The notes below the pieces were generated by a model, which saw only the letters and a list, made by a program, of their open reading frames with translations, searched no databases and was not told the origin of the DNA. A stretch of DNA of 62,297 nt, filler included, from Bipalium vagum (taxonomy: Eukaryota), in NCBI GenBank assembly GCA_037834085.1. It is 3 parts of 3 records of this genome, joined end to end, with 100 filler letters (N's around TTAATTAATTAA, not from the genome) between each part and the next. Parts side by side here need not be neighbours in the genome. Positions count along the whole stretch, not along the records: positions 1 to 23,267 come from JBBMKC010211593.1; 2 more parts are not named here. One strand, 5' to 3'. The stretch's first letter is position 1. Every line of letters begins with the position of its first letter. Positions 1,069 through 1,377 of this stretch are shown here, in pieces. Both the position numbers and the translations under genes were made by a program.

Positions 1069-1377
1069 TTGAAAAATCTTTTAAATATAGAAAAAGTTTT
1101 AGAAAATAATAATATTTTCAATAAAATTGCTATTGGAAATTTACTTTTAAAATTAAAGGAATCTTTCGAAGATAATAAAAGTCATTTGGATTTTCTTAGT
1201 TTGCGCAAGTTAAAAATATCATTATCGGATTTTTATTTTTCCACAAATCTGGCACTATTAGCTGAAGAATATCACAAAATTTCAATGTTAAATGTGCCAT
1301 TGAATATTTTAAAATTCAATATGAAGATAATCAAACAAATTTTAAAAGAAGAATCGGATTTTTGGAAAGAAATATAA
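1069..1377 (+). CDS. Small (~100 aa) Polinton-associated protein of unknown function ending in FWKEI
   Basis: Open frame lying between the pPolB tail and virion-gene remnants; aligns without gaps to a disrupted homologue at 59130-59440. The start codon is uncertain (ORF track uses TTG). Confidence 0.55.
   Translation: MKNLLNIEKVLENNNIFNKIAIGNLLLKLKESFEDNKSHLDFLSLRKLKISLSDFYFSTNLALLAEEYHKISMLNVPLNILKFNMKIIKQILKEESDFWKEI

Follow-up and report, generated by a model that had tools for sequence, protein, structure and literature searches.

Which gene gave rise to a short open reading frame (ORF) that stands among virus-like remnants in the genome of Bipalium vagum, and what would its product do? 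The ORF lies near the start of the window, as we call the whole stretch of 62,297 nucleotides (nt) analysed here (assembly GCA_037834085.1). The window is AT-rich animal DNA with a GC content of mostly 17-30%. An initial annotation had read the ORF as a conserved helical accessory gene of Polintons and had paired it with a disrupted second copy near the far end. The two copies are homologous, belong to one protein family and are both broken, and copy 1 has lost its start and its N-terminal half. Our preferred reading, held with modest confidence, is that the two loci hold broken copies of a single unnamed family among Polinton-type remnants, and that the intact gene likely encoded a helix-turn-helix (HTH) protein of the DUF3102/ParB type that would bind the DNA of the element.

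Two broken copies of one unnamed family

Copy 1 (1009-1377, + strand) is a stop-free frame of 122 codons without an opening ATG and encodes a C-terminal helical domain. It aligns without gaps to 59264-59404 (+), with 17 of 47 residues identical (tblastn E 2.3e-5; composition-adjusted E 2.5e-4). The alignment score of 77 was reached in none of 2000 shuffles (mean 25.8, maximum 48). A profile of 42 relatives that excludes both copies matches only these two places in the window, the next best match being at 0.4. It finds copy 1 at iE 7.4e-34 (profile positions 48-168 of 169) and copy 2 (59216-59419) at iE 4.1e-11 (positions 92-160). The protein-level similarity of the two copies, as first described, is thus real.

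The C-terminal part of copy 2 (59216-59419, +) contains the predicted recognition helix and the helices that follow it. It is open at 59264-59410 and is flanked by stops on both sides. The probable 5' part of copy 2 (58932-59255, +) lies in a different frame; it begins with an ATG at 58932, carries stops at 59124, 59127, 59136 and 59253, and has weak family homology. A terminal FWK motif (59427-59443, +) is in the same frame as the 5' part. The gapless alignment originally drawn over 59130-59440 holds for 59264-59404 but not for its upstream IA.G..L..LKE block, whose score of 25 is matched by the shuffle mean of 25.3 and was reached in 1038 of 2000 shuffles. The family profile finds this block and the FWK piece at only E 0.02 and 0.014, respectively, each with a single target.

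N-gaps at 23268, 37276, 45233 and 49315 place the copies in separate assembly segments, as had been claimed. Contigs of run X1, possibly the source run of the assembly, match 379-1648 (one contig) and 59057-59361 with zero differing letters. This exact reproduction makes assembly errors an unlikely cause of the breaks, with the reservation that X1 may itself have been the source. Further X1 contigs cover 58856-59251 with 27-38 differing letters, so X1 also contains copies of the copy-2 region that have diverged more. In two X1 contigs the 5' end of copy 2 (58911-58913) is joined to capsid-region sequence (60506), a weak signal that hints at rearranged sister copies.

The family extends well beyond the window. 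A phmmer search of 1.84 billion proteins gave 32 matches at E<=1e-3, the best with 47% identity over 117 residues. Two of these (P0006 and P0012) were excluded as repeat proteins. Profile searches gained 12 and then 7 more relatives, and among the names of 20 clusters that were looked up none went beyond 'hypothetical protein'. There are two forms, a long one of 207-239 amino acids and a shorter one of about 140-180. Both window copies group with the long form at a support of 93/85, which is below the starred mark, and the branch leading to copy 2 is long. F77 is invariant (48/48 rows), G43 and L81 are almost so and W119 is present in 40 of 46 rows; these four are conserved structural residues of the predicted domain. 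Several Lys/Arg columns are also conserved. The initial annotation was right that this is a conserved helical family: it is real, all-helical and unnamed. Its statement that the ORF matches no canonical Polinton gene also stands, as Pfam, PDB and fold comparisons gave no core-gene match. A word-based homologue search with P0001 found no match, Pfam and PHROGs scans of both copies gave none up to E 10, and the family profile, run against the PDB sequences, gave none below E 0.07. Animal-like DNA carries the family and the prokaryote genomes scanned do not; their one match (L025) lies on the opposite strand to a P-loop housekeeping gene and was rejected as chance. A tblastn search of phages with P0034 and P0033 returned matches only at E>=1.

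The claim that copy 1 is still open as a gene was not upheld. What survives in copy 1 is the C-terminal half of a longer gene, without its start, and it corresponds to about residues 109-226 of the long relatives P0004 and P0042; the frame is stop-free but has no usable ATG. Position 1069 is a TTG. In the disrupted 5' continuation (970-1008, +) the frame has an ATG at 970, but stops at 979, 991 and 1006 come after it, and no further in-frame ATG occurs before 1285. Similarity to relative P0027 extends upstream through the stop at 1006, to 994. A search upstream of both copies did not find the N-terminal half that the long relatives have. Most likely copy 1 is non-functional and is open by chance following 5' truncation. 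Only the C-terminal end of a pPolB-like gene, recognised by eye from a motif, is seen upstream on the other strand, which suggests that a single deletion removed the 5' portion of each of the two divergent genes. Some observations speak against a dead fragment. The domain of copy 1 shows no visible decay and ranks 29 of 48 in family score, a run of 122 open codons has a chance of 2.4e-6 in random DNA of the same composition, and a single identical contig covers the locus in X1. These would fit domestication, with copy 1 as an HTH exon or a short gene that is still expressed and under selection to stay open. We consider such domestication very improbable, since a usable ATG is absent and homology runs on through the upstream stops. 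A splice acceptor was looked for at 960-1110, where none of the four YAG sites is pyrimidine-rich (pyrimidine fraction 0.29-0.5), and open frames of 100 and 107 codons persist in the dead pPolB and capsid genes nearby.

A predicted helix-turn-helix domain and its relatives

Structure prediction gives the long relatives an N-terminal helical stalk and a C-terminal domain of seven to eight helices. In the predicted structure of full-length P0004 the N-terminal half has three long helices and no sheet. The predicted HTH core of copy 1 comprises helices 36-50, 56-65 and 72-87, the last being the putative recognition helix. In the mechanism that we propose, these helices would form a three-helix core in which DNA would be read by helix 72-87, which has conserved serines at its start, and the later helices would pack behind it. 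The stalk of the long form may space or oligomerise the domain. Its site of action would be the host nucleus, where the protein would regulate or organise the DNA of the element. No ParBc, the CTP-binding catalytic domain of ParB, was found among the Pfam families listed for 27 members, and we therefore propose a simple DNA-binding role without the ParB CTP clamp.

The likeness to DUF3102 was noted before the fold search and was tested afterwards. For this we used 14 DUF3102 proteins; 5 of 151 bacterial genomes supplied them, with a single genome accounting for 10. HHalign aligns the family with DUF3102 over 49-55 columns (P 1.4e-4 to 7e-4, probability 26-53%), and its score was reached in 0/100 column shuffles and 0/100 block shuffles. 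Of 43 family members, 2 match the phage family phrog_6146 (best E 4.5e-4), as do all three DUF3102 proteins tried. A conserved glycine falls on the same phrog_6146 profile column for both groups, as counted by hand, and phrog_6146 genome matches mostly coincide with DUF3102 loci. Among the 14 DUF3102 members, two match HTH_ParB (E 0.013) and three match DUF1016_N (E 0.0023); members also touch HTH_28. These links are individually weak but jointly they favour a ParB-type HTH, an assignment in which we have reasonable confidence. Another phage family, phrog_4571, is matched by 3 of 43 family members (best E 8.4e-5). The initial label 'unrecognised' is correct in that no Pfam or PDB sequence match is convincing, but the domain is probably a remote HTH of the DUF3102/ParB type.

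The family differs from each of the known systems that it resembles. With DUF3102 (PF11300) and phrog_6146, both uncharacterised bacterial or phage proteins, it shares a helix with the glycine, a short second helix and a serine-capped third helix over 49 columns, whereas its C-terminal helices and Trp-ended motif do not align and it sits in animal-like DNA. It is also far under the Pfam cut-off: the best member, P0034, scores 12.6 bits (E 0.17) against a gathering cut-off of 24.4 bits and is the only one of 27 members to match; P0001 and P0002 gave no DUF3102 match. The ParB/Spo0J HTH domain (PDB 1vz0, PF17762) has 8% identity to the family, which has no detected ParB catalytic domain and whose long relatives have a plain helical stalk. 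The N-terminal alpha domain of Raf1 (PDB 8ioj, 8ilb) has 8-13% identity, and no other Raf1 domain was matched. Raf1 serves plants and cyanobacteria as a chaperone in Rubisco assembly. In the control genomes DUF3102 matched, below the cut-off, only in Synechococcus elongatus. This species encodes Raf1; Raf1 could be the DUF3102 match, which would link both folds. One bacterial genome of 2.9 Mb (G098) holds 14 DUF3102 matches (loci L026 and L031-L043), and 146 of the 151 genomes have none.

The resemblance to an HTH could be coincidental and the domain an unrelated helical bundle. All structural match scores are under the tool's significance guide for helical proteins. Foldseek gave no match at E<=0.001 in PDB or BFVD, with a phage ParB/Sulfiredoxin protein (TMq 0.48, E 3.9) as a lead only. 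In the ESM Atlas, features of P0004 match named clusters at most at 0.87, under 0.9; unnamed bacterial and phage clusters are matched at 0.94-0.95. All of these are likewise leads only. A PDB search with the DUF3102 profile returned no ParB chain. The HHalign values are pairwise and would not become significant in a blind all-Pfam search. Nevertheless, structure, profile-profile comparison and the bridging phage family agree on one superfamily and one register, and we consider a chance resemblance unlikely. A further alternative keeps the fold and changes the job: the HTH-like domain may bind protein, as the Raf1 N-terminal domain does, and serve as an assembly factor or an adaptor to host proteins. 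Raf1 is the best whole-domain structural match in both models, and in the closest relatives the domain is almost neutral in net charge. The sequence links, in contrast, go to DUF3102 and phage families that touch HTH_ParB and HTH_28, and the conserved Lys/Arg columns also speak against this alternative. We judge a protein-binding role to be unlikely.

The Polinton setting in the window and beyond

Polinton core genes are pPolB, an RVE integrase, a protease, an ATPase and the capsid proteins, major and minor (PMC11161782). Both copies lie among remnants of this type, as the initial annotation had it, though every match is weak. A viral cysteine protease remnant (2522-2665, +) lies 1.1 kb from copy 1 and is recognised by a His-Trp-Val ... 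Tyr-Phe-Asp-Ser motif (blastx E 0.003, phmmer E 6e-5), evidence that is partly circular because the target loci were chosen by the same motif. A double jelly-roll capsid fragment (60504-60827, -; 107 codons open) lies 1.1 kb from copy 2, and its Pfam matches to DJR-like_dom (E 0.022 and 0.035) are both below the cut-off. A pPolB fragment (50854-51156, +; 100 codons open; DNA_pol_B_2 E 2e-4, below the cut-off) shares the gap-bounded segment of copy 2. Other neighbours have no Pfam match and were assigned by eye from motifs. We take the shattered frame at 610-900 (-), divergent from copy 1, to be the C-terminal end of pPolB, and the remnant at 58703-58852 (+), directly upstream of copy 2, to be an RVE integrase core. 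A small frameshifted gene at 1650-2096 (+), with no Pfam match, encodes a hydrophobic Gly/Ala-rich helix; by eye we liken it to 'Cupiennin'. This is the name of an adintovirus gene (PMC8502044). In a search for terminal inverted repeats, the 25 longest pairs per region were low-complexity AT pairs only; the elements are truncated, and one has its start at the window edge.

Outside the window, a metagenome scan with one subfamily gave 24 loci out of 104 pattern matches, 1.1-5.7 kb long and in 12 sequence clusters. None of 34 neighbouring ORFs in these short loci belongs to a Polinton core family. Viral-contig scans found no family member, nor did 120 protease-bearing viral loci, many of which are giant-virus contigs by name. 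Scans of viral contigs with the window capsid fragment and with an ORF neighbouring locus L003 confirmed none. At L003:896-1273, L004:2198-2419, L009:1-417 and L002:567-1226 the family gene has as neighbours a small hydrophobic ORF, a small ORF that L004 and L009 have in common, and a fibre-like ORF of a kind known from Polintons; none gave an informative Pfam or viral-contig match.

The gene may instead be an accessory of DNA mobile elements of animals in general (Polintons, MULE-type and other transposons, some copies perhaps spliced), with a Polinton link that is only local. The 24 loci share only the family gene with the window, one neighbouring ORF, beside L021, matches a MULE transposase fragment (E 4e-5), and the viral contigs yielded nothing. 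Moreover, 11 of the 24 locus matches hold an internal stop or frame change, and in L022, L023 and L024 the match is limited to profile positions 90-136 without a stop, such that each may represent a single exon of a form that is spliced. Against this, each copy has Polinton-type remnants no more than about 1.2 kb away and the two segments are independent, the outside loci are short and come from another subfamily, and the X1 contigs that join capsid sequence to copy 2 add weakly to the Polinton link. We judge a general role to be rather unlikely. The linkage to core genes is shown within the window only, and Polinton specificity of the family is plausible.

The window holds other features. A 553-codon uninterrupted ORF (46669-48330, -), GC-richer than its surroundings, encodes a sodium channel of the amiloride-sensitive type (Pfam ASC, E 1.9e-34), and 24374-24979 (+) is a discoidin domain receptor exon (DS-like domain, E 1.9e-32). 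A Ser-rich frame of 257 codons (6578-7351, +) and two frames of 94-96 codons (10202-10777, +) have no Pfam match; the latter two presumably resemble host TEX2 in a motif. Tc1/mariner, DDE_Tnp_1_7 transposase and weak reverse-transcriptase remnants lie at 17228-18001, 23320-23754, 29147-29872, 33726-34046, 53112-53441, 12861-13118 and 19555-19902. A 36-nt inverted repeat at 62161-62256 (81% complementary, 24-nt spacer, not low-complexity) is possibly a transposon end.

Meaning for Polinton biology

The control of Polinton genes is poorly understood, and many accessory genes have no assigned fold. 'Adintoc' names conserved genes of unknown function in adintoviruses and Polintons, and these belong to the same category as our family, namely conserved accessory genes without a BLASTP or HHpred match (PMC8502044). 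The main text of a second study does not use 'HTH', 'helix-turn-helix' or 'DNA-binding' (PMC11161782), and our full-text literature searches listed no paper that reports an HTH of the ParB or DUF3102 type from Polintons. A broader proposal, which we regard as doubtful but worth stating, is that animal Polinton viruses carry a widespread unnamed DNA-binding protein that descended from a bacterial or phage DUF3102/ParB-type HTH, and that it would be a first candidate for a prophage-style regulator, one that reads the DNA of its own element and helps to choose between the integrated and active states. The two window copies are dead, and the value lies in the family rather than in the locus. If our reading is true, DUF3102 would be tied to the ParB HTH, and the ParB/DUF3102-type HTH would offer a candidate regulator that can be tested and add one more module of prokaryotic type to those in animal endogenous viruses.
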